From a bacterium (GTDB taxonomy: Bacteria > Patescibacteriota > Patescibacteriia > JACPHY01): DNA of 64,000 nt. The notes beneath the pieces are model-generated. The model was given only the letters and a program-made list of their open reading frames with translations, ran no database searches and was not told the origin of the DNA. A program made the position numbers and the translations under genes. Every line of letters starts with the position of its first letter. Position 1 is the stretch's first letter. Below, piece after piece: positions 13,231-34,480 of the stretch. Location: NCBI GenBank assembly GCA_030646955.1, contig JAUSKM010000028.1, forward strand, positions 1,065 through 65,064, given 5' to 3'.

Positions 13231-13362
13231 CCCATCTGATCCCCTCCCTCTCCGCGTACACGGGGAGAGGGAGGGAGAGGTGGGGCGATATCGCACCATC
13301 GCACAGCCAAGCATAGCCACCTCTCCCCCCTCCCCCCACGAGTACGTACGGGGAGGGGGAGG
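13231..13362. repeat. Composite G/C-rich palindromic element (about 130 nt): CCCCTCCCTCTCCGCGTACACGGGGAGAGGGAGGG / core / CCCCCTCCCCCCACGAGTACGTACGGGGAGGGGGAGG
   Basis: It is nearly identical, in reverse orientation, to 34347-34480. Further module copies occur elsewhere in the window. Confidence 0.7.
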
Positions 13363-13415
13363 ATAAGAAGCGTGCTTGGCGACACAAAAGCCGAAAGAAC
13401 CTACACTAGGAGAGT

Positions 13416-13874
13416 ATGAACATCGTCATCGGGGCGGACTACCGCGGATACAAGCGGAAGGAAGAGCTGAAAGCGTGGCTTGCGGAGCAGGGACATGTGG
13501 TGGAGGATCTTGGCTGCGAAACGGCCGAGGAGAATTCGTTCGTGCCGTACGCGGCGGCGGTGGCGCAGCGGGTTGCGCACGATAGCAATGTGTTGGGCAT
13601 CGTGATCTGCGGCTCCGGCGCGGGCGTGACGATTGCCGCAAACAAGGTGGCGGGCGCGCGTGCTGTGCTGGCGCAATCGCCGGAGGTGGCGGAGCATGGC
13701 CGTCGCTCGGACGATATGAACATTCTTGCGCTCTCCGCGGATTTCACCTCCTTTGCGTCTTCGCGTGCTATCGTTCGTGCGTTCTTGGAAACGGAATTTG
13801 AACCCTTGGAGCGCCGGGTGCAGCGGCTGGAGCAGATCGCCGCACTGGAGCGCGGGGAATCGGCGCACTCCTAG
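13416..13874 (+). CDS. rpiB: ribose-5-phosphate isomerase B
   Basis: The product has RpiB/LacAB-family motifs (IVIGADYRGY…GIVICGSGAGVTIAANK) and is 152 aa. Confidence 0.9.
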   Translation: MNIVIGADYRGYKRKEELKAWLAEQGHVVEDLGCETAEENSFVPYAAAVAQRVAHDSNVLGIVICGSGAGVTIAANKVAGARAVLAQSPEVAEHGRRSDDMNILALSADFTSFASSRAIVRAFLETEFEPLERRVQRLEQIAALERGESAHS

Positions 13875-13980
13875 CCAGCAGTTTTTAGATGCTCGCTCTC
13901 AGGGCGTAGCGGAGGCCTTCAGGCCTCCATCCCCTTCGGAATTATGGAGACCGTAAGGTCTCCGCTACACAGGACGCATC

Positions 13981-14646
13981 ATGCGCACCCCACAGCATCC
14001 CACCATCGTTCCAACCATTCTGGTAAAAGGCGAGCGCGAGTTTCGTGATCGGGTTCGTGCGGTGGCCGGCGTTGCGCCCATCGTGCATATTGATGTTATG
14101 GACGGGGCGTTCGTGCCGCGCAGGACGTGGGCAAATCCAAAAGTTATCGCGAAGCTGCGCGGCGCTGTGCGGTTTGCGGTGCACCTCATGGTGCGCGAGC
14201 CGTCTCCAATACTTGCGGCGTGGGCGAAGATTGCGCGCGTGGAGACCATTATCGTACACGCAGGGGCAACGAAGCGGCTCCCGGAGTTGCTGGCGGATGT
14301 GCATCTCACGGGGAAACGCGTGGGGCTTGCGGTGAATCCTGAGACACCGCTCTATCAGATTCTCCCGGCGCTTCCGTATGCGGACGAAGTGCTGCTCATG
14401 GCCAACGCACCGGGATTTTCCGGGCGTCCGTTTCTGCCAAAGACGCTCGCGCGTATTGCGACACTGCGCAGCCGCGCGCCGGAGCTTGTGATCGGCGTGG
14501 ACATTGGCGTGAATCTGGAGACCGCGCCGCAGATTGCCGCAGCCGGGGCAACGTACGCAGCCGCAGGGAGTGCGATTTTTGATGCGGAGGATCCCGCAAG
14601 GGCGTACCGCGCACTGGTGCGAGCGTTTCAGGGTGGGCGAGGTTGA
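13981..14646 (+). CDS. rpe: ribulose-phosphate 3-epimerase
   Basis: The product has the Rpe motifs VHIDVMDGAFVP and HLMV and is 221 aa. Confidence 0.9.
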   Translation: MRTPQHPTIVPTILVKGEREFRDRVRAVAGVAPIVHIDVMDGAFVPRRTWANPKVIAKLRGAVRFAVHLMVREPSPILAAWAKIARVETIIVHAGATKRLPELLADVHLTGKRVGLAVNPETPLYQILPALPYADEVLLMANAPGFSGRPFLPKTLARIATLRSRAPELVIGVDIGVNLETAPQIAAAGATYAAAGSAIFDAEDPARAYRALVRAFQGGRG

Positions 14647-14671
14647 TTTCGTAAACGGAAGTATCTAATCC

Positions 14672-14752
14672 ATCTGTCATTGCGAGTCCACGAAGCAATC
14701 CCGGCGGTGCCCGACGAACATCGAGATTGCTTCGAGTACTCGCAATGACATG
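14672..14752. repeat. Two copies of the ~29-nt hairpin repeat GTCATTGCGAG…CTCGCAATGAC (GTGAGATTGCTTCGAGTACTCGCAATGAC)
   Basis: One copy reads CATTGCGAGTCCACGAAGCAATC and the other GAGATTGCTTCGAGTACTCGCAATGACA. Confidence 0.6.
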
Positions 14753-14760
14753 CGTCTTGT

Positions 14761-15333
14761 ATGTCCAAGTATCTTCTCACCGCTGCGGCGGCGATCGTAT
14801 TGCTGGGTGCGGGGTGCGTCAGATCACAGCCCGCGCCGGAGCCGGCGGCACAGCAAGAAGCCGCAACGTTCATTGATCCCTCCGCGTCGCAATTGCCAGA
14901 CCTCACGCAGGCACCGCAGGCGCCGCCTACTGCGGCAGATGCAACGCCAACGATTCCCATCCCGCCGCCCAGCGCCTCGCCCGCGTCTACGGATGCCCCG
15001 CCCATCCTGCCGCCGCTGCCGGATGACAAGGGTGACAACGTGAACGCCTCACCGCGCCCCTCCCGCACGATTGTAGTGACCGCGAAGAAGTGGGCGTTTG
15101 AGCCCGCAGAGATCCGCATCACGAAGGGCGAGACGGTAGTGCTTGAGGTCAAGAGCGTTGACGTAGACCACGGCCTCCTCATCCCCGCGCTGAACATCAA
15201 TGAGAAACTGGAGTCGGGAAAGACGGTCCGCATCGAGCTGACGCCCAACGAGGCGGGTACCTTCCCCATGATTTGCAACGTTTACTGCGGTGCGAATCAC
15301 TCCTCCATGCGTGGGACGATTATCGTGGAGTGA
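14761..15333 (+). CDS. lipoprotein with CuA-type cupredoxin domain (cytochrome c oxidase subunit II-like)
   Basis: Lipobox LGAGC is present. The C-terminus carries H…CNVYCGANHSSM, a Cys-x3-Cys-x3-His-x2-Met CuA signature. Confidence 0.7.
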   Translation: MSKYLLTAAAAIVLLGAGCVRSQPAPEPAAQQEAATFIDPSASQLPDLTQAPQAPPTAADATPTIPIPPPSASPASTDAPPILPPLPDDKGDNVNASPRPSRTIVVTAKKWAFEPAEIRITKGETVVLEVKSVDVDHGLLIPALNINEKLESGKTVRIELTPNEAGTFPMICNVYCGANHSSMRGTIIVE

Positions 15334-15430
15334 GCGCAGCGTGCGCCATCACAACATCAGGAGGCCTCCGGGCCCCCTGATGTTTGTTTGTGGACGCACC
15401 ACGCGCCATCATGCGGTACAATGGAAGCGT

Positions 15431-16276
15431 ATGACCATTCGTCAGATGGAACGGAAGGCGAACGCGATTCGGCAAGATCTCGTCACGATGCTTACCGCGG
15501 CAGGATCGGGCCACTCGGCAGGCCCCCTGGGCATGGCGGATGTGTTTACCGCGTTGTACTTTTCCGTGCTCACGCACGATCCCAAGCATCCGGACGATCC
15601 GGAACGTGATCGGCTATTCCTCTCCAACGGACACATTTGTCCAATTTGGTACACGACGCTTGCGCACGCAGGATACTTGCCGCGCCGCGAGATGCTGACG
15701 ACGCTGCGCACGATGGGCAGTCGCCTGCAGGGCCACCCGCATCGCAAGGCGCTGCCGCCCATCGAGAATCCCGCCGGGCCATTGGGGCAGGGACTCTCGC
15801 AGGCCGCGGGGTACGCGTACGCTGCGCGCATCGATCATGCAAAGTTTCAAGTGTACTGCGTGCTCTCGGACGGCGAGCACGAGGAAGGGCAGACATGGGA
15901 GGCCATCATGTTTGCGGGCAAGCACCGGTTGGCAAGCATCACCGCCATCGTGGACCGCAATAATATCCAGATTGACGGGTACACAGAGGACATCATGCCG
16001 CTGGAGCCGCTGCGCGCTAAGTACGAGGCATTCAACTGGCACGTCATCGAGGTAGACGGGCACAACATGGAGGAGATCATCGACGCATGCAGCCTGGCGA
16101 AAGCAATCGTTGAGAAGCCCGTTGCGATTCTCGCGCACACGATTCCCGGCAAGGGCGTGGACTTCATGGAGTTTGATTACGTCTGGCACGGCAAGCCCCC
16201 AAACAGCACTGAAGCCCGCGACGCCCTCCACCAACTCCGCACGCTGGGCGGGAGGATTGTGGGGGAGCATGAGTAA
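15431..16276 (+). CDS. transketolase, N-terminal (TPP-binding) subunit of a split enzyme
   Basis: SGHSAGPLGMADVF matches the Tkt thiamine-diphosphate domain. The ORF stops where the C-terminal subunit ORF begins. Confidence 0.85.
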   Translation: MTIRQMERKANAIRQDLVTMLTAAGSGHSAGPLGMADVFTALYFSVLTHDPKHPDDPERDRLFLSNGHICPIWYTTLAHAGYLPRREMLTTLRTMGSRLQGHPHRKALPPIENPAGPLGQGLSQAAGYAYAARIDHAKFQVYCVLSDGEHEEGQTWEAIMFAGKHRLASITAIVDRNNIQIDGYTEDIMPLEPLRAKYEAFNWHVIEVDGHNMEEIIDACSLAKAIVEKPVAILAHTIPGKGVDFMEFDYVWHGKPPNSTEARDALHQLRTLGGRIVGEHE

Positions 16277-17396
16277 TCCTATGCTCGTCAAGTCACTCAA
16301 CCCGAAACTCTTCCAGAAGAATGTCGCGATGATCCCCACCCGCAATGGGTATGGGGAGGGATTGGTGGAAGCGGGGAAGCGGGATGGCAATGTGGTGGTG
16401 CTGTGTTGCGATCTGACAGAGTCCACGCGGTCGCAAGCGTTTGCGGAGCAGTTCCCGGAGCGGTTTGTGCAGGTGGGGGTGGCGGAGCAGAACATGGCGG
16501 GGCTTGCCGCGGGTATGGCGGCGTATGGGAAGGTGCCGTTCACGTCGAGCTATGCGGTGTTCTCGCCGGGGCGCAATTGGGATCAGACGCGCGTGGCGAT
16601 TGCGTATGGGGAGGCGAACGTGAAGATCGCGGGCGCGCACGCGGGCATCTCCGTGGGGCCGGACGGTGCGACGCACCAGGCATTGGAGGACCTGGCAATC
16701 ATGCGCGTGCTTCCGGGGATGGTGGTGCTTGCGCCGTGCGATGCGATCGAGGCAAAGAAAGCAGTGATCGCCGCTGCGGAGCATCGCGGGCCGGTGTACT
16801 TGCGGTTCACGCGCGAGAAGACGCCGATCATCACCACGCCGCGTGCGCCGTTTTCCATTGGGCGCGCGCAGGTGCTGCGCAAGGGGACGGATGCAACCAT
16901 CATCGCGGCGGGGCCGCTGGTGTTTGAAGCGTTGCTGGCCGCGGAGGCGTTGGCGGGGAACCGCACCGCGCTCGCGCGTATTGTGGAGCGCTACCCCGCG
17001 CTCTCCAAGCGTGTGAAGACATCCGCGCTCCACGGGCACTCCATGCAGCGCGCCAAGCAGGCGGTGCGATGGACGCCCGCGAGTATCCGCGATCTCCTGG
17101 CGCATGCGGGGCGCATGGACATTGAGGTCATCAATTGCCCGTCCATCAAGCCGCTGGACCACGGTGCCATCGTGGCAAGCGCCAAAAAGACCGGCCGCGT
17201 CATCACGGTGGAGGAGCACCAGATCACCGGCGGCCTCTTTGGCGCCATCGCAGAGCTTTTGGCGCGCCATCATCCCGTGCCTATCACCCCCATCGGCATG
17301 CCAAACTCCTTTGGCGAGAGCGGCGAACCGATGGAGCTTTTGGAGAAGTACGGCATGACCGCACCGCACGTCATCGCAGCGCTCATTCAGCAGTAA
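16269..17396 (+). CDS. transketolase, C-terminal (pyrimidine-binding and C-terminal domain) subunit
   Basis: The ATG overlaps the upstream stop (ATGAGTAA). The product has the Tkt central and C-terminal domains. Confidence 0.85.
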   Translation: MSNPMLVKSLNPKLFQKNVAMIPTRNGYGEGLVEAGKRDGNVVVLCCDLTESTRSQAFAEQFPERFVQVGVAEQNMAGLAAGMAAYGKVPFTSSYAVFSPGRNWDQTRVAIAYGEANVKIAGAHAGISVGPDGATHQALEDLAIMRVLPGMVVLAPCDAIEAKKAVIAAAEHRGPVYLRFTREKTPIITTPRAPFSIGRAQVLRKGTDATIIAAGPLVFEALLAAEALAGNRTALARIVERYPALSKRVKTSALHGHSMQRAKQAVRWTPASIRDLLAHAGRMDIEVINCPSIKPLDHGAIVASAKKTGRVITVEEHQITGGLFGAIAELLARHHPVPITPIGMPNSFGESGEPMELLEKYGMTAPHVIAALIQQ

Positions 17397-17409
17397 CCCC
17401 CGCACGCAT

Positions 17410-19674
17410 ATGCGCATGTTCCGAAGTATCGGTATCATTGCCATCACCCTCGCATTCCTCGCGAGCGGGGTGCCCGCACCCGCTGCCGCATCGGTTGTGG
17501 GTGATCTCCCACCGTTTTCCGACGACCTTGTCATCAGCTCTCCCGAACTCCCGGGCGGCGCGCTCCGCGTGCTTGGCCAGCAGGATGAAGTACGCGAGTT
17601 CCCGCTCAAACACACGGACGTGGACGCGCGCATTGCGGGTCGTCTTGCGCACGTGACCGTGCGCCAGGAGTTTACGAATCCGTACGAGGAGGTCATCGAG
17701 GCCGTGTATGTCTTCCCGCTCCCCGAGGACGCCGCGGTGAACCGGATGGAGATGCACATCGGCGACCGCATCGTACGCGGAATCATCAAGACGCGCGAGG
17801 AGGCGCGCGCGACGTACGAGGAAGCGAAGCGCGAGGGGAAGCGCGCGGGGCTCCTTGAGCAGGAACGCGCAAACATCTTCACGCAGTCCGTCGCGAATAT
17901 TCAGCCCGGCGAGTCCATCACGGTGGAGATCGCGTACGTCCACGCGCTCGTGCCGAACGATGGAATTTTTACGTTCGCCTTTCCCATGGTCGTTGGCCCG
18001 CGGTACATCCCGGGCACACAGGCCGTGGGGCAAATCGGAACGGGCACGGTGCCGGACACGGACGCGGTGCCGGACGCCTCGCGCATCACCCCGCCCGTCC
18101 TCCCGCCCGGCACGCGCTCGGGCCACGACATTGCGCTCACAGCGACGCTCTCCGCAGGGTACCCCATCACCGCGCTCGACACGCCGACGCACGCCGTTGA
18201 CATCGTGCGTTCGAGCGATACGCAGGCGACGGTGGCGCTCAAGCCGTTCGACACTATCCCGAACAAGGACTTTGTCCTCCGCTGGCGCACGGATGCTGAG
18301 TCCATCGCGCCCGCGCTCCTCGCGAAGCGTGCGGAGGACGGCGACGGCGGCCACTTCCTCCTCATGGTTCAACCGCCCGCAGCACCCTCCGCCGCAAGCG
18401 TGACACCAAAGGAAATCATTTTCATTGTAGACGCGTCCGGCTCCATGAGTGGGGAGCCCATCGCGAAGCTCAAGGCGGCGATGCGCTATGCGCTCGAGCA
18501 CCTCAACTCGGACGACGCGTTCACCGTTCTCCAGTTCTCGTCCACGAACGCCTGGCTCTCGGATGTTCCGCTCCCCGCCACCTCGGAGAACATCCGACGC
18601 GGCCTACAGTACGTCAATGGCATTGAGACGAGCGGAGGGACGGAGATGTGGGGCGCAGTCAACGCTGCGCTCAACGCGCCGAAGACCGACCCAGCGCGTA
18701 TTCGTATCATCTCCCTCATGACCGATGGACTCATCGGGAACGAACGCGATGTCACGCGTCGCGTGGATGAGATCCTCGGTGACGCGCGTCTCTTCCCCTT
18801 TGGCGTCGGTTCGAGCGTCAACCGCGCACTCATCGAATCCCTCGCGCAGGCCGGCCGCGGCTACCCCACGGTTGTCACGCTCCGCGAGTCCGGAGAGGAC
18901 GCGGTGCAGCGTTTCTACAATCGCCTCGCGTCGCCGCTCCTCACGGACATTACCGTGGACTGGGGATCGCTCGTGGTGCACGACGTCACACCCGCGCGCA
19001 TCCCGGACCTCTTTGCGGGCGAACAGCTCGCTGTTGTCGGCGCGTACGACCGCGCGGGGACCGACACGATTCGCATCACGGGCAAGGTACGCGGCGCACC
19101 GACGACGTTCGTGTTGCCCGTCACGTTCCCCGCAGAGAGTAACGACACCTACGCTGCGATCCCCACGATCTGGGCGCGATGGCGCGTGCGTGGGATCACA
19201 CACGACTACGCAATGAGCGCTGGCGATCAAGAGGCAGCCGTCACCGCCCTCGGCCTCGCATATCGCATCGTCACGCCGTTCACATCGTTCGTCGCAGTAG
19301 AGGAGATTCCCTCTGCAACCCCGGGCGTCCTGCCGCGTACCGTGCCCGTGCCGGTCGAGATCCCGGAGGGCGTGAGCTACAAGGGGGTATTCGGATCGCC
19401 CGGCCTCGACGGCATGGGCGGCGGGGGCATGTACACCACGCTTGATGTTGGTCTGGGTGGCGCGTACGGAGGGCAGGAGGTATCATTCGGCGCGCGCGAT
19501 CCCGGAGCAGTACGGAGAGCGCTCATCAATCTCATCGGCGCAGCCATCCTCGCGCTCCTTGTGCTCGCGGGCATCATCTCCGCCATCGTCCATGTGGTGC
19601 GCACGCGACGGAAAGAACACGCGGGGCATCCCAAGAGTGGAGACGATGCCGCTCCACCGCCAACGATAGAGTAG
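17410..19674 (+). CDS. VIT plus von Willebrand factor A domain protein with C-terminal TM anchor (754 aa)
   Basis: An N-terminal signal peptide is followed by a vault/inter-alpha-trypsin (VIT) domain, a vWA domain with the MIDAS motif DASGSMSG, and a C-terminal hydrophobic helix. Confidence 0.8.
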   Translation: MRMFRSIGIIAITLAFLASGVPAPAAASVVGDLPPFSDDLVISSPELPGGALRVLGQQDEVREFPLKHTDVDARIAGRLAHVTVRQEFTNPYEEVIEAVYVFPLPEDAAVNRMEMHIGDRIVRGIIKTREEARATYEEAKREGKRAGLLEQERANIFTQSVANIQPGESITVEIAYVHALVPNDGIFTFAFPMVVGPRYIPGTQAVGQIGTGTVPDTDAVPDASRITPPVLPPGTRSGHDIALTATLSAGYPITALDTPTHAVDIVRSSDTQATVALKPFDTIPNKDFVLRWRTDAESIAPALLAKRAEDGDGGHFLLMVQPPAAPSAASVTPKEIIFIVDASGSMSGEPIAKLKAAMRYALEHLNSDDAFTVLQFSSTNAWLSDVPLPATSENIRRGLQYVNGIETSGGTEMWGAVNAALNAPKTDPARIRIISLMTDGLIGNERDVTRRVDEILGDARLFPFGVGSSVNRALIESLAQAGRGYPTVVTLRESGEDAVQRFYNRLASPLLTDITVDWGSLVVHDVTPARIPDLFAGEQLAVVGAYDRAGTDTIRITGKVRGAPTTFVLPVTFPAESNDTYAAIPTIWARWRVRGITHDYAMSAGDQEAAVTALGLAYRIVTPFTSFVAVEEIPSATPGVLPRTVPVPVEIPEGVSYKGVFGSPGLDGMGGGGMYTTLDVGLGGAYGGQEVSFGARDPGAVRRALINLIGAAILALLVLAGIISAIVHVVRTRRKEHAGHPKSGDDAAPPPTIE

Positions 19675-19733
19675 TGCGTGATGCTCCACACCCCTCCCGA
19701 CGCGCATCGGGTGGGGTGTGTTATGCTAAGGGT

Positions 19734-20708
19734 ATGTACGCTCTCATCACCATTGGCGACATTAAATTAGATACGTTCATCGTGCTGGATGACGCGTCGC
19801 TCCAGTGTTCGTTGGAAGAAAGTCACGCGTGCAAGCTTTGCATCGAGTACGGCGCGAAGATTCCGGTGAAGGATTTTGAACCGCAAATTGCTGGGTCTGC
19901 GCCAAACGTCGCAGTCGCGTTGTCGCGGTTGAAGCTGAAAACCGCGGTGTACTCCATCGTGGGGAGCGATCCTACTGGCATGCTTGCCTACGCACACCTG
20001 CGCAAGGAAGGGGTGCGTACGACGTACGTAAAGACCTCGCGGCACGGGCGCTCCAGCTACTCCGTGGTTATCAGCTACAAGGGTGATCGGACGATCCTGG
20101 GCGTGCTGCACCCGCGTACCTATCGGCTGCCGCGGCTTGCAGCAACTAAGTGGCTCTACCTTTCGGAAATGGGGGAGGATTTTGTATCGCTCTACGATGA
20201 TGTGGCGGCACTGCACGCGCGGACGCAGGTGAAGATCGGTTTTAATCCGGGTGCGGTGCAAATTCGCGCGGGCGCGCGTAAGCTCAAACCGCTTCTTAAG
20301 GCGACAGCGGTGTTGTTTGTGAATCGCGAAGAGGGTCATCAGCTTTTGGGGAAGAAGCATAGCCTCGATACGAAGCATCTTCTCACCGCGCTCTGGAAGT
20401 TGGGACCAGATGCCGTGGTCGTGACGGATGGTTCGGAGGGCGCGTACGCGTTTGATGGCGGCGATGGGTGGCACCTGCCCGCGTTCCCTGCGACGGTGGT
20501 GGAATCCACGGGCGCGGGGGATGGTTTCGCGGCGGGCGTGCTGGCGGGTACGATGTACGGGAAGCCACTTGCGGAGGCGCTGCGGTGGGGCGCGGCCAAC
20601 GCTGCATCGGTGGTGGGCGCCGTTGGTCCCACACCCGGGCTCCTCACCAAGACGCAAATGGACCGCGCGCTCAAGCGGCATGTGCACATGACGGCACGGG
20701 TTCTATGA
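19734..20708 (+). CDS. PfkB-family carbohydrate kinase (ribokinase-like)
   Basis: The product has the PfkB signatures (the GAGD anion hole and the C-terminal DTTGAGD-like motif) and is 324 aa. Confidence 0.8.
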   Translation: MYALITIGDIKLDTFIVLDDASLQCSLEESHACKLCIEYGAKIPVKDFEPQIAGSAPNVAVALSRLKLKTAVYSIVGSDPTGMLAYAHLRKEGVRTTYVKTSRHGRSSYSVVISYKGDRTILGVLHPRTYRLPRLAATKWLYLSEMGEDFVSLYDDVAALHARTQVKIGFNPGAVQIRAGARKLKPLLKATAVLFVNREEGHQLLGKKHSLDTKHLLTALWKLGPDAVVVTDGSEGAYAFDGGDGWHLPAFPATVVESTGAGDGFAAGVLAGTMYGKPLAEALRWGAANAASVVGAVGPTPGLLTKTQMDRALKRHVHMTARVL

Positions 20709-20980
20709 GGTCTCCAGCACCTGGCATGGTGTGTTATCCGAAGAGCATGGCGACCGCTGCTGCGTGGTTTGGGTGGACGGGGGCGGCGATGTTCCTGCTG
20801 GCGTACACGTTGGCGATTTTTGGCGTTATCAATGCAACAGCACTGTCGTACGCGATCCTCAATGGCCTTGGTGCACTTGGAGTAATCATTGAGGCGGTTG
20901 TGCATCGGACGAAACCAGTGCTTTTTCTCAATGTTGCGTGGCTTGGTATCGCGATTGCCGCATTGTTTCGTAATCTATGA
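20705..20980 (+). CDS. small membrane protein (91 aa)
   Basis: It has ATGA overlaps with both the upstream pfkB stop and the downstream fba start. Two to three TM helices are predicted. Confidence 0.5.
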   Translation: MRSPAPGMVCYPKSMATAAAWFGWTGAAMFLLAYTLAIFGVINATALSYAILNGLGALGVIIEAVVHRTKPVLFLNVAWLGIAIAALFRNL

Positions 20981-21924
20981 TCGCAAAACAACCCCTTCAG
21001 CTTCTGCAAAAAGCGTTGCGTGGCAAGTATGCCATCGGTGCGTTCAACGTGAATAATTTGGAGCTTTTGCAGGGCATTGTACGTGGTGCAGAAGCACAGC
21101 GTGCGCCGGTGATTCTGCAGACCAGCGAGGGAGCGATTGAATACGCGGGAATGGCAGAGCTGGTAGCGATGATGAGCACTGCGGCGCAGCGCGCGACGGT
21201 GCCGTGCGTTATTCACTTGGATCACGGGAAGGATTTGGACGTTGTTCGCGCGGCGATCAAGCAGGGGTACACGAGTGTTATGTACGATGGCTCATCGCTC
21301 TCGTACGACGAGAACGTGCGCAACACCGCGAAAGTGGTGCGCTGGGCGCGCGCAGCAGGGGTGATGGTGGAGGCAGAGCTGGGTGCGATCGCGGGGACAG
21401 AGGATTTGGTGTCGGTTGAAGCGCGCGAGGCGACGTATACCATCCCGGAGCAGGCGCTGGATTTTGTAGAGCGCACGGGTTGTGACAGCCTTGCCATTGC
21501 CATCGGCACGGCGCACGGGGCACACAAAGCGGCAGTGACGAATATTGTATTGGACATCCCGCGGCTCAAACGTATTCATGCGTTGGTGCAAAAAACGCCG
21601 CTGGTACTGCACGGCGCATCATCGGTGCCTGATGAGCTGGTGGGGGAGACGCGCATGTACTGCTCCATGTTGGGCGATTGTCAGCGGTTGGATGGGGCGC
21701 AAGGCATTCCCGACACGCAAGTACGGCAGGCGATCGCGAACGGCGTGTGTAAGGTGAATACCGACACAGATCTGCGCATCGCGTTCACGGCCGCAGTTCG
21801 TGAGACCATCGTAGAACAAAAAGATGTGTTCGATCCTCGCAAGCTCCTGGCCCCGGCTCGCGATGCCATCCAGCGCATCGTCACACAGCGCATCGCGGTT
21901 TTTGGGAGTAAGGGGAAGGGCTAA
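20977..21924 (+). CDS. fba: class II fructose-bisphosphate aldolase
   Basis: The product matches the FbaA/TBP aldolase family (HLDHG, GTAHG motifs) and is 315 aa. Confidence 0.9.
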   Translation: MIAKQPLQLLQKALRGKYAIGAFNVNNLELLQGIVRGAEAQRAPVILQTSEGAIEYAGMAELVAMMSTAAQRATVPCVIHLDHGKDLDVVRAAIKQGYTSVMYDGSSLSYDENVRNTAKVVRWARAAGVMVEAELGAIAGTEDLVSVEAREATYTIPEQALDFVERTGCDSLAIAIGTAHGAHKAAVTNIVLDIPRLKRIHALVQKTPLVLHGASSVPDELVGETRMYCSMLGDCQRLDGAQGIPDTQVRQAIANGVCKVNTDTDLRIAFTAAVRETIVEQKDVFDPRKLLAPARDAIQRIVTQRIAVFGSKGKG

Positions 21925-22934: not shown

Positions 22935-22962
22935 GAGTTCTAGTTCTTCCCTTGACTGTGCG

Positions 22963-23200
22963 GGCACGTTCTCTGATTCTCCCCCCTCTCCTTGTACCCA
23001 AGGGGAGGGGGGATTGAGGGGGGAGGGGAGGTCTGACGTATGACCAGTGGGGTCAGCGGTACACGTGCCGGTGTTGCATGGTTGCGCGTACCCCATTTGA
23101 TAGCACTGTTTTCGGTCCCGCTCCATGCGCACCTCTCCCCCTCCCACTCCCCCTCTCCCCGCAGACGCGGAGAGGGGGAGGGTCAGAGACAAAAAGAAAC
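22963..23200. repeat. Partial copies of the G/C palindromic modules (CCCCCCTCTCCTTGTACCCAAGGGGAGGGGGG…; CCTCTCCCCGCAGACGCGGAGAGGG)
   Basis: These match the right and left modules of composites 13231-13362 and 34347-34480. ORF 23040..23261 is an artefact of the repeat. Confidence 0.6.
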
Positions 23201-23229
23201 GCATCCCCCGATTGGTTCGGGGGATGCTG
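23186..23229 (-). terminator. Intrinsic terminator for minus-strand gene 23267..23602
   Basis: Hairpin GCATCCCCCG-attggttc-GGGGGATGC has GTTTCTTTTTGTCTC on the minus strand. Confidence 0.5.
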
Positions 23230-26640: not shown

Positions 26641-26712
26641 CGCGCACGCGGCAGGCGGATACGCTCAAGCTAGCATTCCCGCGTTGCTTCCCCCTGCGTG
26701 CGACTCTCGCGT

Positions 26713-27273
26713 ATGTTTTCTATCAATGACATCTCGAAAGGAACGGTGCTCAAGTTCAAGGGTGGACTCTCCGTCGTGACGTACTTCCAGCACGTCAACC
26801 CCGGCAAGGGGTCCTCGTTTGTGCGCGTGCGGCTGAAGGATATCGCGTCAAGCAAGACCGTGGAGCAGACGTTCAAGGCAGGCGAGCAGGTGGAGTTTGC
26901 GGAGGTGGAGCGCCCGAAGATGCAGTTCCTCTACGCGGATCCCATGGGGTACACGTTCATGCACGGCGAGACGTTTGAGCAGGTGATGGTGTCACGCGAT
27001 CTCGTGGGTGAGGACGCAGGGTACCTGACGGAAGGATTGGAGGTGCATGTCATCCTCCACGACGGAGCGCCGATTGCCGTTGAGCTGCCCAAGAAGGTGA
27101 CGCTCGCGGTGGCGGAGGCGTACGAGGCGGCGAAGGGCGACACTGCGGGTGGCAACGTCACCAAGGAAGTGACACTCGAAACCGGCAAAACCGCGCGTGT
27201 CCCGCTCTTCATCAAGCAAGGCGAGAAGGTGATTATCAACACGGAGACCGGCGAGTACGTGGAGCGAGCGTGA
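26713..27273 (+). CDS. efp: elongation factor P
   Basis: KPGKG is present in the form NPGKGSSFVRVRLKD. The OB-fold architecture is present and the product is 186 aa. Confidence 0.9.
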   Translation: MFSINDISKGTVLKFKGGLSVVTYFQHVNPGKGSSFVRVRLKDIASSKTVEQTFKAGEQVEFAEVERPKMQFLYADPMGYTFMHGETFEQVMVSRDLVGEDAGYLTEGLEVHVILHDGAPIAVELPKKVTLAVAEAYEAAKGDTAGGNVTKEVTLETGKTARVPLFIKQGEKVIINTETGEYVERA

Positions 27274-27311
27274 CACCGGTCACGCTCGTGCCCGTCCCAG
27301 GAGGATGGCGT

Positions 27312-27938
27312 ATGACGAAATACGATCGGCCGCCGCAGCCCACGGAAGCAGGCGACGATTTCACGAACATTGACGCCGTGGATGAGGCGCTTGCGAGCGA
27401 TGATGCGAAGCGGGTAGCCGCGGTGCGCGCATGGTTGACCACGCGGGGCGGCATGACGGATCGCGAGGTGGATGCTTCCATTGCAACCGAGCGGTTGCGA
27501 CGTTCCGTGCATGATGCGATGCGGATTGAGCATGGTGCACGCATTGCGCGCGATCCGAAGCCGACACCGGAAGAATGGTCGATGGGCGCATTTGTGGAGA
27601 GCGTAGAGCCGCAAGTCCGACAGGCCGTACGTACGCTTCGTCGCAAAGGATACAACACGATGTCATCGGGATTTTGGGGATTTCACTATCAATCCACGAG
27701 ATTCGCGGAGCCCGTGCGTGATGCGTTGGACGCGGAAACGCTGCAGCGCCTTGCGGAGCTGGGTGCGGAGGTACATGAGCAGAGCATTCGATTTTCTTGT
27801 GCGCAGCAAGATCTTGCGCAGATTGCGGAGCGCTGGAATGCGATCGCGGACGTGCTCCCGGACCTGGGACGTCCCGCGTCGGATACGGATCACGGCGCTG
27901 CGCAGACGTTTCGCCAGCGGTATGGGGGCGGCGTGTAG
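27312..27938 (+). CDS. hypothetical protein (208 aa)
   Basis: GGAGG RBS is present. I could not recognise a family. Confidence 0.55.
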   Translation: MTKYDRPPQPTEAGDDFTNIDAVDEALASDDAKRVAAVRAWLTTRGGMTDREVDASIATERLRRSVHDAMRIEHGARIARDPKPTPEEWSMGAFVESVEPQVRQAVRTLRRKGYNTMSSGFWGFHYQSTRFAEPVRDALDAETLQRLAELGAEVHEQSIRFSCAQQDLAQIAERWNAIADVLPDLGRPASDTDHGAAQTFRQRYGGGV

Positions 27939-27971
27939 CGATAGTGTCATGAGTGGTAACTGGACAGAGCT

Positions 27972-28664
27972 ATGGAACGCATCCACAAATTCATCGCGCG
28001 CGCGGGTGTGGTCTCGCGGCGCAAGGCGGAAGAGCTGATCGCGGCCGGCCGCGTGACGGTCAATGGCCGCCGTGCAGCCATTGGTATGTCTGTGGATCCC
28101 GTGACAGACGTGGTGGAAGTATCCGGCAAGCGCGTCGTGTTGCCGCAGTCGTACACCTACCTCCTCTTCCACAAACCCGCGGGGTTCGTGACAACGCGGT
28201 CGGACGAGCGCGGACGTCAGACCATTTACGATCTCCTCCCCAAGCAGTACCACACGCTCCGGTACGCCGGGCGGTTGGATAAGGATTCCGAAGGTCTTCT
28301 GCTGTTGACGGATGACGGTGATTTCATCGAGCGGCTCATGCACCCGCGCAACCGCGTGGAGAAGGAGTACGTCGTCTATCCCGCGTCACGTCCCACGTAC
28401 GGACAGATCGCAGCACTCCGCGGCGGCGCGATGGTGCACGGCAAACGCCACGCGCGCCCCGACCGCGTCACCACCATTGGCGGGAACGTCCATGTGATTG
28501 TGCGCGAGGGCGCCAAGCGCGAGGTGCGCTCGCTGTGCGCCTCCGCCGGCATTGATGTCGCGCGTCTCGTCCGCATCCGCATCGGCACCATCATGCTCCC
28601 GTCCGATCTTGCACCCGGAAAATGGCGTATCACGCAACGAGAACATCTGCTGGAGCACGAGTAA
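27972..28664 (+). CDS. pseudouridine synthase, RsuA/RluB family (S4 domain plus catalytic domain)
   Basis: The product has an N-terminal S4 RNA-binding region and the RsuA-family catalytic Asp motif GRLDKDSEGLLLLTDDG. Confidence 0.8.
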   Translation: MERIHKFIARAGVVSRRKAEELIAAGRVTVNGRRAAIGMSVDPVTDVVEVSGKRVVLPQSYTYLLFHKPAGFVTTRSDERGRQTIYDLLPKQYHTLRYAGRLDKDSEGLLLLTDDGDFIERLMHPRNRVEKEYVVYPASRPTYGQIAALRGGAMVHGKRHARPDRVTTIGGNVHVIVREGAKREVRSLCASAGIDVARLVRIRIGTIMLPSDLAPGKWRITQREHLLEHE

Positions 28665-28701
28665 CCCCGCCGGAGCAATCCGGCGGGGTGTGTGGTGCGC
28701 G

Positions 28702-29076
28702 TCATGCGGCGGGCGTTGGTGGAGTTTTTCCCATCATGCGTGCGCGGATGCGTCGGCGGATGGGGTGGACGCAATATGCCTCGAACATGCTGAGGGCGAT
28801 CAGGGGCGTGCCCACGATTGGGCCGATGGCAAGCCACATCAGGGTCGGAATGACGTCCCCGTGTGCCTCGATCCACCGAATGGTTGTTCCGATCCATGTG
28901 CGCTCGACGAACGTGCCGAACGCATCGAACCATTCGAGTGGCTCGCTGTCGTCGTGCGGCGTCTTCTCGATGGAGTCCAAAACAACACCGGTGAGGCGGA
29001 GCATGACCCAGCCCAGGAGGAGCCATGCGACGGACCAGATGATGCCCTTGCCAACGAATAGGTACACGATTTCCAC
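28702..29076 (-). CDS. hypothetical membrane protein (124 aa, GTG start)
   Basis: AAAGGAG lies 6 nt upstream of the GTG. It is convergent with the pseudouridine synthase gene. Confidence 0.5.
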   Translation of the reverse strand: MEIVYLFVGKGIIWSVAWLLLGWVMLRLTGVVLDSIEKTPHDDSEPLEWFDAFGTFVERTWIGTTIRWIEAHGDVIPTLMWLAIGPIVGTPLIALSMFEAYCVHPIRRRIRARMMGKTPPTPAA

Positions 29077-29145
29077 GAGTCGCTCCTTTCAGCGGAGTGG
29101 ATGTTCAAAGTACTAGTGGAAGCGTAGCAGAAGTTGCCGCGAAGG

Positions 29146-30540
29146 TCAAGTGAACGAAATGGGTTGCCCCTCCAGTGGCCGATCCACGCGCCAAGCGGGG
29201 TGGCGCTCCGCGAGTTGGGCGGCGAATGCCGCACGCGCGTCGTCCTCGCCGTGCACCAGGACAGCATGTCGGACGCCGGGGACGCGGTCAGCCCAGGCGA
29301 GGAGTTGTGGCTGGTCTGCGTGTGCGGAGAACGCGTCGAACGCAACTACCTCGGCGCGTACGGGGTACGACTCGCCGTGGAGCGTGACCTCCTTGGCACC
29401 GTCCTGGATGCGCCGGCCGGTGGTCCCCTTGGCTTGAAAACCGGTAATGAGTACCATGTTGCGTGGATCGGCAATCGTGTGGCGCAGGTGGTGGACGATG
29501 CGGCCGTTCGTCATCATGCCGGAGGCGGAGATGATTACCATCGGTCCGCTGGCGCTGTTGAGCGCCTTGGATTCGTCACGGGTATGCGTGAAGCGGAGGT
29601 TTTCAAATGCAAGCGGGACATGCTGCGCGCCCGGGAAATCACTGCGGGACTCGGCATCGTACGCATCGCGGTATTGCGCGTACACGGTGGTGAGCTCGCT
29701 TGCAAGCGGGGAGTCCACCACGATGGGAATGCGCGGGATACGACCGGCATCCGCTAGCTGGTGGAGGAGGTAGATGAGGAGTTGCGTGCGGCCCAGTGAG
29801 AACGCGGGGATCACGATGGTACCGCCGCGTGCCGCGCCACGTGACACGGCATCCGCCAGCGCGTCCGTGGCGCCGGGGAACGAGGGGTGCGCGCGATCGC
29901 CGTACGTCGTTTCGCATAGGAGCACATCGCACGGCTCCAGAGGCACCTCGGGGTTACGCAGAATGGGGACGTCTGCCGCGCCAAGGTCGCCAGAGAAACA
30001 GAGCGTGTGATCGGGGGAGAGGCGAAGGACGGGGACCGCCGAACCCAAGATGTGGCCTGCGTCGTAACATTTGAGCGCAATGCCATCCGCGATGTCGTGC
30101 CACGCGTTGCTTTCGTGTGCGTACGGGATCGCATCCACGCGCTCCATGGCGCGTTCGACGTCCTCCGGCGTCATCGTCGGTTTCCAATCCTCGGGATCGC
30201 CCAACGCGCGCCGCTTGCGAAACAGCGCGTCCTCCGCCGCGATCATCGCCGCGTCCAAGAGAATGAGCCGCATGATATCCCGTGTGGCCGCCGTCGCGTA
30301 CACGCGCCCGCGGAATCCGTCACGGACAAGCACGGGGAGCATTCCCGTATGGTCTGCGTGGGCGTGGGAGATCACCACCGCGTCAACATCACGCGGCGAA
30401 AACGGCAGCGTGCGATTGCGCCCGTCCGCATCCGGTCCTTGGAACATGCCGCAATCGAGCAGCACCGTCGCACGTTCGGTGGTAACAAGGTGCTTGGAGC
30501 CAGTCACACCGCCAGCGGCACCGTAACAGGTGAGCGTCAT
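29146..30540 (-). CDS. MBL-fold metallo-hydrolase of the RNA-metabolising beta-CASP family
   Basis: The product has the HAHADHTG metal-binding motif and beta-CASP organisation and is 464 aa. Confidence 0.8.
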   Translation of the reverse strand: MTLTCYGAAGGVTGSKHLVTTERATVLLDCGMFQGPDADGRNRTLPFSPRDVDAVVISHAHADHTGMLPVLVRDGFRGRVYATAATRDIMRLILLDAAMIAAEDALFRKRRALGDPEDWKPTMTPEDVERAMERVDAIPYAHESNAWHDIADGIALKCYDAGHILGSAVPVLRLSPDHTLCFSGDLGAADVPILRNPEVPLEPCDVLLCETTYGDRAHPSFPGATDALADAVSRGAARGGTIVIPAFSLGRTQLLIYLLHQLADAGRIPRIPIVVDSPLASELTTVYAQYRDAYDAESRSDFPGAQHVPLAFENLRFTHTRDESKALNSASGPMVIISASGMMTNGRIVHHLRHTIADPRNMVLITGFQAKGTTGRRIQDGAKEVTLHGESYPVRAEVVAFDAFSAHADQPQLLAWADRVPGVRHAVLVHGEDDARAAFAAQLAERHPAWRVDRPLEGQPISFT

Positions 30541-30738
30541 AGAAAGGCGCGAGCTGCGATTTCCGAGCTGCAGGAAAAGTGTACAGGAATAATGCCGAGG
30601 TACTCACAGCGATCAGCGAGATGCCCGACGTTCTTCTGACTGCATCGTACCATGCCGCAGCAGCACGACGGACGTGGTATTCTCAAGGAGTGGATTCTTC
30701 ATCGTTTCTTCCGAAACAGTATGATACATTGAGCATAT

Positions 30739-31074
30739 ATGAACTTCCTCATCCAATGGATTATCTACACGATTGCGATCGGCATTGCGGCGTACGTCCT
30801 ACCAGGCGTGCGTGTTGAGGGTGCCATTGCAGCGCTCATTGCCGCGCTCATTCTGGGTATTGTGAATGCGGTTCTGCGGCCGCTCCTTGTGCTGCTGACG
30901 CTGCCGGTGACGGTGGTAACGCTGGGGCTGTTCGTCTTTGTCATCAACGCATTCCTCGTCCTGCTCGCAGCGGCAATCGTTCCAGGGTTTTATGTGGCGG
31001 GATTTGGATGGGCGCTCCTCTTCAGCATCGTCCTCATGCTCGTCCATCTCGCGCTCAAGGGGTTGGCGAAATAG
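30739..31074 (+). CDS. 4-TM membrane protein of the phage-holin family 4 (DUF360-like)
   Basis: It is 111 aa with the pattern ILGIVNAVLRPLL…TLGLF…NA typical of that family. The family assignment comes from sequence pattern alone. Confidence 0.55.
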   Translation: MNFLIQWIIYTIAIGIAAYVLPGVRVEGAIAALIAALILGIVNAVLRPLLVLLTLPVTVVTLGLFVFVINAFLVLLAAAIVPGFYVAGFGWALLFSIVLMLVHLALKGLAK

Positions 31075-31147
31075 TGCACTGCATCCATCACACGACACCA
31101 CCGGACGCGTGTCCGGTGGTGTCGTGTCGTACGGGAATTGTCTGCAA

Positions 31148-31600
31148 CTATCCTGCCATTTCCTTTCCGTTATGCATGGCTTTCGATTTCCCGCGCATGA
31201 GCGCGAACGCGCCACCGCCGGCCAATGCCAGCGCGAGCGAGATGCCAAAGAGTGCGAGCTCCAGGTCGCCCTTCGGGAGCGCGCGGCTCACCAAGAAGAA
31301 CGCGGTGGCCATCTCGATGGCGAAGAGCGCGGCGAGCGGCCGGACGAGGATGCCCAGGAGCAGCCCGATCCCTCCCGCAAACTCCAGGAGCGCAACAACC
31401 CATGCGGCAATCCCTGCGGCGGGGACGCCCAACGATCCGAAGAATCCCGTCACGCCCTCGATACCTGGCGCGCCGAAGAGCTTGCCGTACCCATGGAAGA
31501 TGAAGATCGCGGCAGCGACGACACGGAGCACGAGGAGCGCGAGATCAACGCACTTTCCGCTGCACGGGCCGCCGTGCTCGCAGGTAAACATGCTGCACAT
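31148..31600 (-). CDS. DoxX family membrane protein
   Basis: LRVVAAAIFIFHGYGKLFG is present with about 4 TM helices. The start codon is uncertain. Confidence 0.65.
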   Translation of the reverse strand: MCSMFTCEHGGPCSGKCVDLALLVLRVVAAAIFIFHGYGKLFGAPGIEGVTGFFGSLGVPAAGIAAWVVALLEFAGGIGLLLGILVRPLAALFAIEMATAFFLVSRALPKGDLELALFGISLALALAGGGAFALMRGKSKAMHNGKEMAG

Positions 31601-31692
31601 AGGGCAGATGGCTACAATGATGAATGATGGAACCAGTATAGCATGTGGTACGCTAGGAGAGCGTTGAACATTGAGCGTGCAGGAGAAACGCT

Positions 31693-31908
31693 ATGGCTAG
31701 CGAATCGCAGGAGAGTGTGGACGTTCGGCTTGATGCGCTCACGGAGAAGATTGACGAAATCCAACGGTCATTGGATCGTATGCGGCGAGCCGCGTACATT
31801 CGGCTTGTGCTCACCATTATCATCGTGGTGCTGCCGCTCATTGGGCTCGTCGCCACGCTTCCGCGGATGTTTACGATGCTATCCAACAGCGACATCCTTG
31901 GCCTCTAG
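31693..31908 (+). CDS. small protein with coiled-coil N-terminus and a C-terminal TM helix (71 aa)
   Basis: AGGAG RBS is present. It lies between DoxX and the efflux adaptor gene. Confidence 0.4.
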   Translation: MASESQESVDVRLDALTEKIDEIQRSLDRMRRAAYIRLVLTIIIVVLPLIGLVATLPRMFTMLSNSDILGL

Positions 31909-31954
31909 CCCCCGGGCTTGCTGGCGCGTATCCGTGTTGCATTATAGAGGGCAT

Positions 31955-33616
31955 ATGACGGTATGGTATCGAAAACCCTGGTTTTTTATTGCTGTCCTTG
32001 CGTGTATCGCGGGGACAGCATGGATTGTGGTAGCGCAGCGCGGGAGCGAGGCACCGGCGTACGATACGTTCTTGGTGGCGCCGCGCGATGTGGTGCGGGA
32101 GGTGGCGACGACCGGAACCGTTGAGGCCGCGGATACGGTTGCGCTTGCATTTTCAGTGAGCGGCCGCATTGCGCGGGTCGCGGTTGCTGTGGGCGATCGG
32201 GTTGCTGCCGGCGCCGTGCTGGTCACGCTGGAGCAAGCCGACCTCTTTGCGGCGCGGGCGCAGGAAGAGGCCGCTGCAGCAGCAGAACATGCGGAGCTTG
32301 CGGCGTTACGCATCGGGACACGGACGGAAGAGCTACGCGTGAAGGAGGCGAGCCGCGAGAACGCACAGCGGTCGCTTGCGGATGCCGAGGGAACGCTGGC
32401 GAACGTCATCGCAAAGGCGAATGCAGACCTCGCCGCACACTACGACAGCGCGCCGAATGTGCTACGCGATGCGTACACAAAAGCAGACGATGCGGTGCGC
32501 AAGCAGACGGACGAGCTTTTCATGAACGATGCGACGGACAATCCGCAACTCACGTTTCAAACCGCCGATATGCAGGCGGAAATTGACGCGGAGCGCGACC
32601 GGCGTGGCGTTGAGGTTGTCCTGCAACGGTGGCCGTCGCGTACGGCGACGCTTGAGAGCATTGGCGATTCTGAGTTGGATGCGATGCTCGCAATCATGAC
32701 GGCGGACGCGAGCACCATTCGTTCGTTCCTGGAGCGCGCGTCCGCTGCGGTGAATGCAGCGTCGAACATCAATCAAGCGACCATCACCGCGTATAAGGCG
32801 AACATCGGTACGGCGCGTGCGAATATTGATACGGTGCAGGCGGCAGTGGATGATCAGATCCAGGACATTGCGCTTCAGCGCGTGACGAATCACAACGCAG
32901 TCGCAGCCGCGCAGGCAGACGTGACGATCGCACGCAATGCGTTGGTGGCGGCGGATGCAGCGCTGGCGCTCGCTCGGGCAGCGGCAACGCCAGAAACGAT
33001 TGCGGTGCAGGAGGCGGCGGTTGCTGCTGCGAACGCGCGTGTGGCGCGTGTGGATGCGGACCTCGCAAAGACGGTGCTCCGTGCTCCGTTTGGAGGCGTG
33101 GCATCGGTGGTGGATGCAAACGCGGGAGCGATCGCAACCGTTGGCGCGCCGCTGGTGACTATTCTCGCAGACGCTGCATTCGAAATCACCGCGAACATTC
33201 CAGAGGTAGACCTTGCGGGTCTTGCGGTGGGGCAAATGGCGTCGGTCACGCTGGATGCGTACGGGTCGGAGGAGGTGTTTCGCACAACGCTCGTCTCGAT
33301 TGATCCCGCGGCGACACTGGTTGAAGGAGTGCCAACGTACAAAACGACGCTCGTTTTTGACGAGACGGATGATCGGATACGCGCAGGCATGACGGCGGAT
33401 GTCACGATTGCCGTGGATCAACGCATGCGCGTCCTTGCGATTCCGCAGCGCGCCATCATCCGGCGCGAGGGCATTGTACTGGTGCGTGTGCTCCGTGGTG
33501 ATTGGGTTGAGGAAGTGCCGGTTTCCGTGGGACTGCGGGGTTCAGATGGATTTATAGAAATCGTGGATGGGCTGGATGCGGGCGACACGATCGTACGCTC
33601 GTTCGACGTGGAATAG
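31955..33616 (+). CDS. efflux transporter periplasmic adaptor subunit (HlyD/MacA-like)
   Basis: The product has an N-terminal TM anchor, a long coiled coil and a beta-barrel C-terminus. A MacB-type ABC pair lies immediately downstream. Confidence 0.75.
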   Translation: MTVWYRKPWFFIAVLACIAGTAWIVVAQRGSEAPAYDTFLVAPRDVVREVATTGTVEAADTVALAFSVSGRIARVAVAVGDRVAAGAVLVTLEQADLFAARAQEEAAAAAEHAELAALRIGTRTEELRVKEASRENAQRSLADAEGTLANVIAKANADLAAHYDSAPNVLRDAYTKADDAVRKQTDELFMNDATDNPQLTFQTADMQAEIDAERDRRGVEVVLQRWPSRTATLESIGDSELDAMLAIMTADASTIRSFLERASAAVNAASNINQATITAYKANIGTARANIDTVQAAVDDQIQDIALQRVTNHNAVAAAQADVTIARNALVAADAALALARAAATPETIAVQEAAVAAANARVARVDADLAKTVLRAPFGGVASVVDANAGAIATVGAPLVTILADAAFEITANIPEVDLAGLAVGQMASVTLDAYGSEEVFRTTLVSIDPAATLVEGVPTYKTTLVFDETDDRIRAGMTADVTIAVDQRMRVLAIPQRAIIRREGIVLVRVLRGDWVEEVPVSVGLRGSDGFIEIVDGLDAGDTIVRSFDVE

Positions 33617-33618
33617 CT

Positions 33619-34332
33619 ATGGCGCTCATCCAGATCGCGGACCTCACGAAGATATACGGCGAGGGTGCAGCGGCAACCCCGGCGCTTGCCGGGGTTTCGT
33701 GCGCGGTGGAGCGCGGGGAGTATGTTGCGGTGATGGGCCCGTCGGGGTCTGGGAAATCCACATTCCTCCACATCCTCGGGCTTCTGGATCGCCCGACGAG
33801 CGGTTCGTACGTCCTGGATGGCGCATCGGTGGCGGAGCTGGACGATGATGTGTTGGCGCGATTACGCAATGAGCGCATCGGATTCATCTTCCAGCAGTTC
33901 AATCTGCTTCCGCGTGCGACCGTACGCGAGAACGTGCAGCTTCCGCTCCTCTACTCGAACGTCCCAGAGCGCGAATGGCCTGCGATTATCGAGCGTGCCG
34001 TTGCGCGCGTGGGGCTCATGCAGCGGATGGAGCACACCCGCGCACAGCTTTCCGGCGGGGAGCAGCAGCGCGTCGCCATCGCCCGCGCACTTGCGCGCGA
34101 TCCGCAGATCATCTTTGCAGATGAGCCAACAGGCAACCTCGACAGCGCCTCCGGCCGGCAGGTGATGGAGCTTCTGGAACAGCTGCATGCGGACGGGCAC
34201 ACCATCATGCTCATTACGCACGAGCAGGCCACAGCCGAGCACGCGCAGCGCATCCTGCGCCTGCATGATGGCCATCTCGAGTCCGACACGCGCGTCGCCC
34301 AGCGTCGTACCGCCGCTCAGTTCACCCGGTGA
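33619..34332 (+). CDS. ABC transporter ATP-binding protein (MacB/LolD family)
   Basis: The product has Walker A GPSGSGKST, the signature LSGGEQQR and Walker B IIFADEPTGNLD. Confidence 0.9.
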   Translation: MALIQIADLTKIYGEGAAATPALAGVSCAVERGEYVAVMGPSGSGKSTFLHILGLLDRPTSGSYVLDGASVAELDDDVLARLRNERIGFIFQQFNLLPRATVRENVQLPLLYSNVPEREWPAIIERAVARVGLMQRMEHTRAQLSGGEQQRVAIARALARDPQIIFADEPTGNLDSASGRQVMELLEQLHADGHTIMLITHEQATAEHAQRILRLHDGHLESDTRVAQRRTAAQFTR

Positions 34333-34346
34333 GCACATGTTCCTGG

Positions 34347-34480
34347 CCTCCCCCTCCCCGCTGTACCCAAGGGGGAGGGGGAGAGGTGGCTATGCATGGC
34401 TGTGCGATGGTGCGATTTCGCCCCACCCCTCCCTCCCCCCGAGGACGCGGGGAGGGAGGGGATGAGATGGGGTTATAACC
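34347..34480. repeat. Composite G/C-rich palindromic element (about 130 nt), inverted copy of 13231-13362
   Basis: The reverse complement aligns base for base with 13231-13362 apart from a few indels. It sits between the ABC ATPase and permease genes. Confidence 0.7.

Follow-up and report, generated by a model that had tools for sequence, protein, structure and literature searches.

What is a pair of look-alike palindromic stretches, inverted with respect to each other and 21 kb apart at unrelated loci, doing in a bacterial chromosome? The pair lies on contig JAUSKM010000028.1 (GenBank assembly GCA_030646955.1), of which 64,000 nt were analyzed; we call this whole stretch the window. One copy (A) is found upstream of rpiB, and the other (B) between the ATPase and permease genes of an ABC transporter. 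A reading made from the letters and open reading frames (ORFs) alone, here called the sequence-only reading, took them for a recently mobile, non-autonomous element resembling a miniature inverted-repeat transposable element (MITE). Our answer is that A and B are members of a lineage-specific, non-autonomous family of hairpin repeats, similar to the REP/REPIN and RPE repeats of other bacteria, that is probably copied in trans. We put the probability of this at about 0.7.

Copy A (13213–13362, + strand) is intergenic, 54 nt upstream of rpiB (ribose-5-phosphate isomerase B, 13416–13874, +; LacAB_rpiB, E = 1e-39). Copy B (34347–34489, − strand) is the same composite in the opposite orientation. 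It fills most of a 213-nt spacer running from the stop codon of the ATPase gene (33619–34332, +, assigned by domain scan) to the start of a MacB/FtsX-type permease gene (34546–35793, +), the 415-aa form of which is NCBI MDO8425473.1 (100% identical). These contexts, now supported by Pfam, are those of the sequence-only reading. Its positions are right as well, except that the similarity between A and B extends ~18 nt further left than it had drawn. Local alignment of A with the reverse complement of B, viewed also in MAFFT, gives 126 identical columns of 151 (83%), with 16 mismatches and nine gap columns. In a repeat search, complementarity between A and B reaches 93% over the central 67 nt, and the 40-nt core occurs twice at ≤2 mismatches against 0.00 occurrences expected from 100 dinucleotide shuffles. 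In each copy a core, closed by GGTGG/CCACC, separates a left hairpin with a C-arm and a G-arm from a right hairpin. In copy A the left unit is at 13232–13295, the inverted right unit at 13313–13371, and the core GGCGATATCGCACCATCGCACAGCCAAGCATAG is closed by GAGGTGG/CCACCTC. Folded as single-stranded DNA, both copies form a three-way junction of about −44 kcal/mol, more stable than shuffled sequences (z = −6.9 and −5.2). The inverted pair is thus confirmed.

A and B are assembled from a basic unit of ~60 nt. From the outside inwards this has a TCTGAT-like tag, a 12–15-nt arm containing only C and T, a loop (GCGTCCKC in six of the ten units), a complementary arm containing only G and A, and a G-rich tail that ends in GGTGGCATG or a variant of it. 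Ten such units (E = 1e-9 to 1e-15 in a profile search) and one smaller related hairpin are present in the 64 kb, and the profile built from the ten found no further units in the window. It does match a relative, the contig L008, at 15336–15396 (E = 4e-7). A degenerate 26-nt hairpin pattern has six matches in the window against 0.00 expected. Units occur as inverted pairs, their tails pairing across a variable core that is common to A and B, 31 nt long in C and ~90 nt in F; D, E and the smaller hairpin G are solo. The composites are 142–223 nt long, and two folds are open to them, a three-way junction and a single long hairpin.

Copy F (22970–23192, no strand assigned) is intergenic, following a PfkB kinase gene. 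Its units at 22972–23033 (+) and 23125–23189 (−) enclose the ~90-nt core, which is unrelated to the others, and are bounded by a perfect outer inverted repeat, TCTCTGA…TCAGAGA. Copy A ends in TCTGATCC…GGATAAGA. Terminal inverted repeats are thus present, in the form of whole units inverted at both ends. Copy C (59753–59894, +; units 59753–59818 (+) and 59834–59894 (−)) is inside a GT2 glycosyltransferase gene (59670–60794, +). It has the flanking modules of A and B around a different, short core, GGTGGCATGGTGGCGCAGGACGAAGGCCACC, just as had been noticed from the letters. The same gene contains element G (60124–60195, +), a solo small hairpin of form TGTCTCCCCCTCC-TGCTT-GGAGGGGGAGACA followed by a G-rich tail. 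Element D (62111–62225, +) comprises a solo unit (62144–62209) and an accessory hairpin (62112–62134); it is inside a PMT/ArnT-type membrane glycosyltransferase gene on the minus strand (61060–62718), where it encodes …SPSRSPSPRGRGEGEDQ…. The solo unit E (62440–62496, +) is inside the same gene and encodes …HPSPRGRGEGEGWKG…. With inverted pairs around different cores, and solo units besides, the suggestion that the element is modular holds, and this is a dispersed, gene-less family rather than a chance similarity.

The accessory hairpin is of the type GCATCCCCC-loop-GGGGGATGC, and is found just outside the right unit of F (23201–23227) and just outside unit D (62112–62134). This suggests that it is a further module of the repeat family. 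The hairpin at 23201–23227 is terminator-like on both strands.

The hairpin is the feature that has been conserved. Across 11 aligned units (ten from the window and one from L008) 90% of stem cells are paired, and six of the 13 stem pairs exchange C–G for T–A on both sides. None of 500 shuffles reached the observed pairing and covariation, and sliding the partner by one to three columns reduced the pairing to 71–83%. On these controls the hairpin itself has been kept, not merely the sequence. Copy C folds as one long hairpin of −52.9 kcal/mol (z = −5.7), and z for the DNA folding of the composites ranges overall from −5.2 to −6.9.

The window holds 11 canonical G-quadruplex motifs (four runs of at least three G, spaced by 1–7 nt), of which eight fall inside repeat elements, at 13262–13285, 23002–23028, 23137–23160, 34421–34472, 59784–59812, 62175–62203 and 62438–62460. 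The G-rich arms and tails might conceivably double as structural or regulatory DNA.

Are these copies insertions? The window has a G+C content of ~62% and carries core-chromosome genes (rpoB, rpoC, recA, ftsK, efp, typA, transketolase and fructose-bisphosphate aldolase). From the names of the best named homologues of three window proteins, we judged the host to be an uncultured member of Candidatus Uhrbacteria, in the Candidate Phyla Radiation (CPR; Patescibacteria). Relatives were reached through protein homologues, and from these to their contigs. L006 (JGI Ga0637471_0000230) and L007 (GCA_030647005.1) have permeases 74 and 71% identical to that of the window, while the transketolases of L008 and L009 are 84 and 83% identical. 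L003, L004 and L005 are related Uhrbacteria contigs that contain an orthologue of the GT2 gene.

Site B is empty in both L006, where the ATPase gene shares one base with the permease gene, and L007, where they are 7 nt apart, compared with 213 nt in the window. At site A, the region upstream of rpiB has no family unit in L008 or L009. The intergenic space of site F, 798 nt in the window, measures 143 nt in L008 and just 56 in L009. All four intragenic sites are empty in L005, and no family element is found anywhere in L005, L006 or L007 (42 kb in total). On this comparison the window copies are insertions relative to related genomes. That much of the claimed mobility stands, for site A, for site B and for the intragenic sites. 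The comparison sets no date on it, for the closest relatives with an empty site share only 62–85% protein identity, and the near-identical L002 (a Logan assembly of SRR13727527, 99.7% identical to the window over 2.4 kb) keeps the elements.

Some relatives have hairpins of their own. At the first GT2 site (that of element C in the window) the element in L003 is solo, TCTGGT-TCTCCCCCTC-TTCAA-GAGGGGGAG followed by a tail, and that in L004 is a composite of ~120 nt; in each the stem differs from that of the window. L009 contains its own family of ~80-nt composites (CCCCTCTTA-NNN-TAAGAGGGG …) in two copies, one of which is preceded by TCTGTT and extends a PfkB ORF. A TCTGAT or TCTGTT tag, a pyrimidine-first hairpin and a G-rich tail thus recur in L003, L004, L008 and L009, while the stem sequences differ. 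The plan is therefore common to Uhrbacteria lineages while the stem drifts. Repeats that evolve as a population inside each lineage would be expected to give this pattern, which is also compatible with gene conversion among copies.

Four of the seven window elements (C and G in the GT2 gene, D and E in the PMT-type gene) are intragenic, and all four are in-frame. On alignment the GT2 protein is 374 aa long, compared with 311–314 aa for orthologues that lack the two segments. Relative to L005 it gains 44 codons at element C (residues about 32–75) and a net 17 codons at element G, and the PMT-type protein gains two segments, at D and E, of ~36 codons in total. The Pfam GT2 match begins only at residue 76, at position 27 of the profile, skipping insert C. 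In an AlphaFold model based on a 15-sequence alignment the predicted local distance difference test score is below 50 at residues 32–73 and 160–171, between confident strands and helices of the GT-A fold, so that the inserts are predicted to be disordered loops. It is likely that the intragenic copies add loops rich in Pro, Gly, Arg and Glu such as PSPRGRGEG, a peptide that appears three times in the two proteins. The left unit of C is read in another frame and orientation, giving PLPPRVLGEREG. Five or six of the six reading frames are open in the intragenic copies, compared with one to three in the intergenic copies and an average of 3.0 in random 140-nt pieces of the window. So many frames are open because no frame of an all-C/T or an all-G/A arm can hold TAA, TAG or TGA, and survival within genes is made easy for the same reason.

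The independent assembly L002 carries elements C and G unchanged, which disposes of an assembly artefact. In L002 the GT2 gene (330–1307, equivalent to window 59817–60794) has been called from an ATG inside element C, so that the protein starts MVAQDEG; repeats of this kind therefore mislead gene callers. A HlyD-like gene that seemed 107 aa longer than those of relatives was also considered; the extra length is due to an upstream false start, and there is no insertion.

To what known repeats does this family correspond? As described in PMC3733652, PMC3337134 and PMC3116915, the REP, BIME and REPIN sequences share much with it. Both are based on an imperfect palindrome of 35–40 nt with an unpaired tag at one end; in both, a unit may be solo or paired with an inverted partner across a spacer, such pairs being foldable into a larger hairpin; and both are dispersed and non-coding, with no target-site duplication and with some copies inside genes. 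The window hairpins are 31–44 nt, and we count them as agreeing with the highly repeated imperfect palindromes of 20–40 bp that characterize REPs. Copies A, B, C and F have the doublet layout. There are also differences. Two large REP super-families are defined by unpaired GTAG or CGTC tags (PMC3733652), whereas the tag of the window is TCTGAT, and in its stems one arm is strictly of pyrimidines and the other strictly of purines. At 31 to about 90 nt, depending on the copy, the spacers exceed those of REP doublets; four of seven elements are intragenic, no RAYT gene is seen in the window, and the CPR host is outside the phyla where tagged REPs have been catalogued.

The RPEs of Rickettsia offer the second likeness. 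These are palindromic repeats of ~100–150 bp found in-frame in unrelated housekeeping genes of a small reduced genome, where the added peptide takes a position compatible with the fold (PMC10969869). The four GT2 and PMT insertions are likewise in-frame in unrelated genes, and keep the ORF. The likeness is one of architecture and placement. The hosts are unrelated, and the window units are much more G+C-rich than RPEs; they are free of stop codons through composition, not through a conserved ORF, solo half-units are inserted as well, and two host genes have been seen so far compared with 44 insertions reported for R. conorii. Bacterial MITEs such as Correia, ERIC and Nezha are also small, structured, multicopy elements without a transposase, bounded by inverted repeats and capable of in-frame ORF fusion (PMC10969869). 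Unlike them, the window family has no target-site duplication and no related insertion sequence found in the window, and its half-elements are autonomous hairpins. On the hairpin units, inverted pairs, solo units and in-frame copies, the architecture fits REP/BIME–REPINs and RPEs better than a transposase-derived MITE. We file the family as a new, lineage-specific entry in the general class of bacterial palindromic repeats, belonging to no named family.

How might such repeats spread? New copies would be produced in trans, by an enzyme whose gene lies in another part of the genome. Of the possible routes, the likeliest would be one in which an HUH/Y1-type enzyme recognizes a single-stranded hairpin together with its 5′ tag, and we favor this tentatively, as possible rather than probable. 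A route of this kind has been proposed for REPs and REPINs with RAYTs (tyrosine transposases), and is established for IS200/IS605 (PMC3337134, PMC3116915, PMC6006769). It would need no terminal inverted repeats and leave no target-site duplication. It would account at once for an unpaired tag and a stem pairing that are both conserved, for the absence of target duplications and for solo units that look functional. Insertions would survive only where they are harmless: anywhere between genes, and within genes only if their length is a multiple of three and they fall in surface loops. Copy B likely uncouples the ATPase stop from the permease start, and places a very stable structure in the transcript of the operon.

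Could the repeats have spread without an enzyme of their own? Recombination by the host, gene conversion from hairpin to hairpin or a switch of template at stalled forks could create such copies and homogenize them, as a by-product of structure-prone DNA. At the first GT2 site the elements of the window, L003 and L004 each resemble copies in their own genome or lineage rather than the orthologous element, as expected of concerted evolution, and the window offers neither target-site duplication nor transposase. Gene conversion, however, cannot seed new and unrelated sites such as the 7-nt operon junction, and retention of the unpaired TCTGAT tag across lineages whose stems have diverged suggests a sequence that is recognized. 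We therefore regard spread without an enzyme as improbable.

The classical MITE would be an internally deleted insertion sequence of the DDE type, moved through its terminal inverted repeats by a cut-and-paste or copy-paste reaction. The composites have the small size (142–223 nt), the structure and the inverted ends of such an element, perfect in the case of F, and there are several copies with different cores. Yet the target-site duplications that the sequence-only reading had proposed to seek are not seen at the flanks of any copy; inspection found no direct repeat at A, B, C, D, E or F, although the ~77% nucleotide identity to the relatives limits the comparison of filled with empty sites. 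Among 50 window ORFs scanned against Pfam there is no transposase or other mobility domain, RAYT included. Solo half-units are frequent (D, E and G, and units in L008 and L003), and each 'terminal repeat' is itself a hairpin with conserved pairing. The label of a MITE-like element thus fits only loosely, through the terminal inverted repeats, and we consider an origin of this kind quite improbable.

A third possibility is that the hairpins are selected as cis-acting structures, i.e. terminators, structures that stabilize or attenuate mRNA, or protein-binding sites, recruited locus by locus. They are indeed very stable, with covarying stems; copy B is within an operon, and effects of REP-like hairpins on the expression of neighboring genes are well known (PMC3733652). 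Against this, the main family hairpins lack a T-run and none is called terminator-like. Only the accessory hairpins at 23201–23227 and 62112–62134 are, and these occur next to F and D alone. Moreover, the repeats are found in both orientations, and within coding sequence in different frames. At the gathering thresholds of Rfam the window gives only the tRNA at 597–669, and no family matches the repeats. Selection locus by locus is accordingly very unlikely. Matches to Rfam miRNA hairpins at permissive E-values were generic and far below threshold, and were treated as chance. Selection of the peptide PSPRGRGEG itself, with an incidental DNA palindrome, might be entertained from its three occurrences in two proteins, but is scarcely credible when the DNA unit is intergenic at A, B and F and read in another frame and orientation in the left unit of C, when the inserts are predicted to be disordered, and when a search with the 50-aa peptide of element C among 1.84 billion representative proteins found no true relative, only an irrelevant repeat protein.

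Copying in trans as a REP/REPIN- and RPE-like family is left as the best explanation. Several observations weigh against it. No transposase of any kind lies in the 64-kb window, and we infer the copying enzyme and its mechanism entirely. Neither a GTAG nor a CGTC tag stands next to any stem; the tag conserved there, also unpaired, is TCTGAT or close to it. The spread of the family rests on a few metagenomic contigs, because pattern scans of species genomes found nothing: the core 20-mer and the degenerate hairpin 26-mer had no exact-pattern match in 185,579 species genomes (GTDB). Finally, the hairpins at the first GT2 site in L003 and L004 may indicate that some copies are old insertions homogenized by gene conversion, not fresh transpositions. 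Other searches were also negative. The hairpin 26-mer had no match in viral contigs, BLASTN of copy A against plasmids and phages gave no match, and among the papers covered by full-text searches none describes repeats like these in Uhrbacteria or Patescibacteria. The single metagenome-contig match of the core 20-mer, L001, is an unrelated contig of low G+C content and was put down to chance. Other candidates that were dropped are integron attC sites, CRISPR or TIGR repeats, and inteins; there are no arrays, cassettes, integrase or intein domains, and the inserts are low-complexity peptides.

The surroundings contain further features. A second hairpin family, unrelated to the first (GAGATTGCTTCG…CTCGCAATGACA), has at least ten copies in the window (2864, 8106, 12815, 14675–14750, 43819, 43967, 47921, 49932, 50156 and 50858), including an inverted pair at 14675/14722. 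It is also found in L008, upstream of rpiB, at 3430–3590. At 12700–12826 in the window, and at 3283–3365 in L008, a hairpin of ~90 nt precedes a terminator-like stem and T-run. Between the two the hairpin is ~95% identical, whereas the flanks differ; it has no Rfam match, and is a candidate for a small structured RNA. A cysteine-rich ORF of 55 codons (MEQETCGSCDCGKAAETGVCCGAGCGAACGTGHDDAKDCACDAHG…, 12988–13155, +), metallothionein-like in composition, lies a little upstream of A. Positions 1–12300 comprise paralogous ORFs without a Pfam match, separated by repeated intergenic modules, together with the tRNA gene noted above. In L009 (8274–9638) and L010 (4931–6295) a gene of the 23S_rRNA_IVP family and two small ORFs separate the halves of a split transketolase, which in the window and L008 lie next to each other.

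What does the family mean for these bacteria? Elements of this kind are already known; what stands out is the host lineage, the stop-free pyrimidine/purine stems and the four in-frame insertions in two adjacent glycosyltransferase genes. A bolder view, which we think rather doubtful, is that Uhrbacteria carry long-lived, vertically evolving hairpin replicators defined by the TCTGAT tag and a stem of pyrimidine and purine arms, copied by an unrecognized enzyme acting on single-stranded DNA, and that these have repeatedly colonized the surface loops of envelope glycosyltransferases. If that were true, hairpin replicators would supply proteins with insertions in genomes that are known chiefly for being small.

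The genomes of CPR bacteria are very small and usually called streamlined, yet here there would be dense selfish hairpins, at about one unit per 6 kb in the window. The family would be the second clear case, after Rickettsia, in an unrelated lineage of reduced genomes. It splits a tightly coupled transporter operon, and adds 12–44 residues to glycosyltransferases without breaking them. Repeats of this type explain odd gene calls and inflated intergenic spacers, and probably contig breaks, in metagenome-assembled genomes of Uhrbacteria. The conserved tag and hairpin together provide a concrete handle with which to find the copying enzyme in CPR bacteria.

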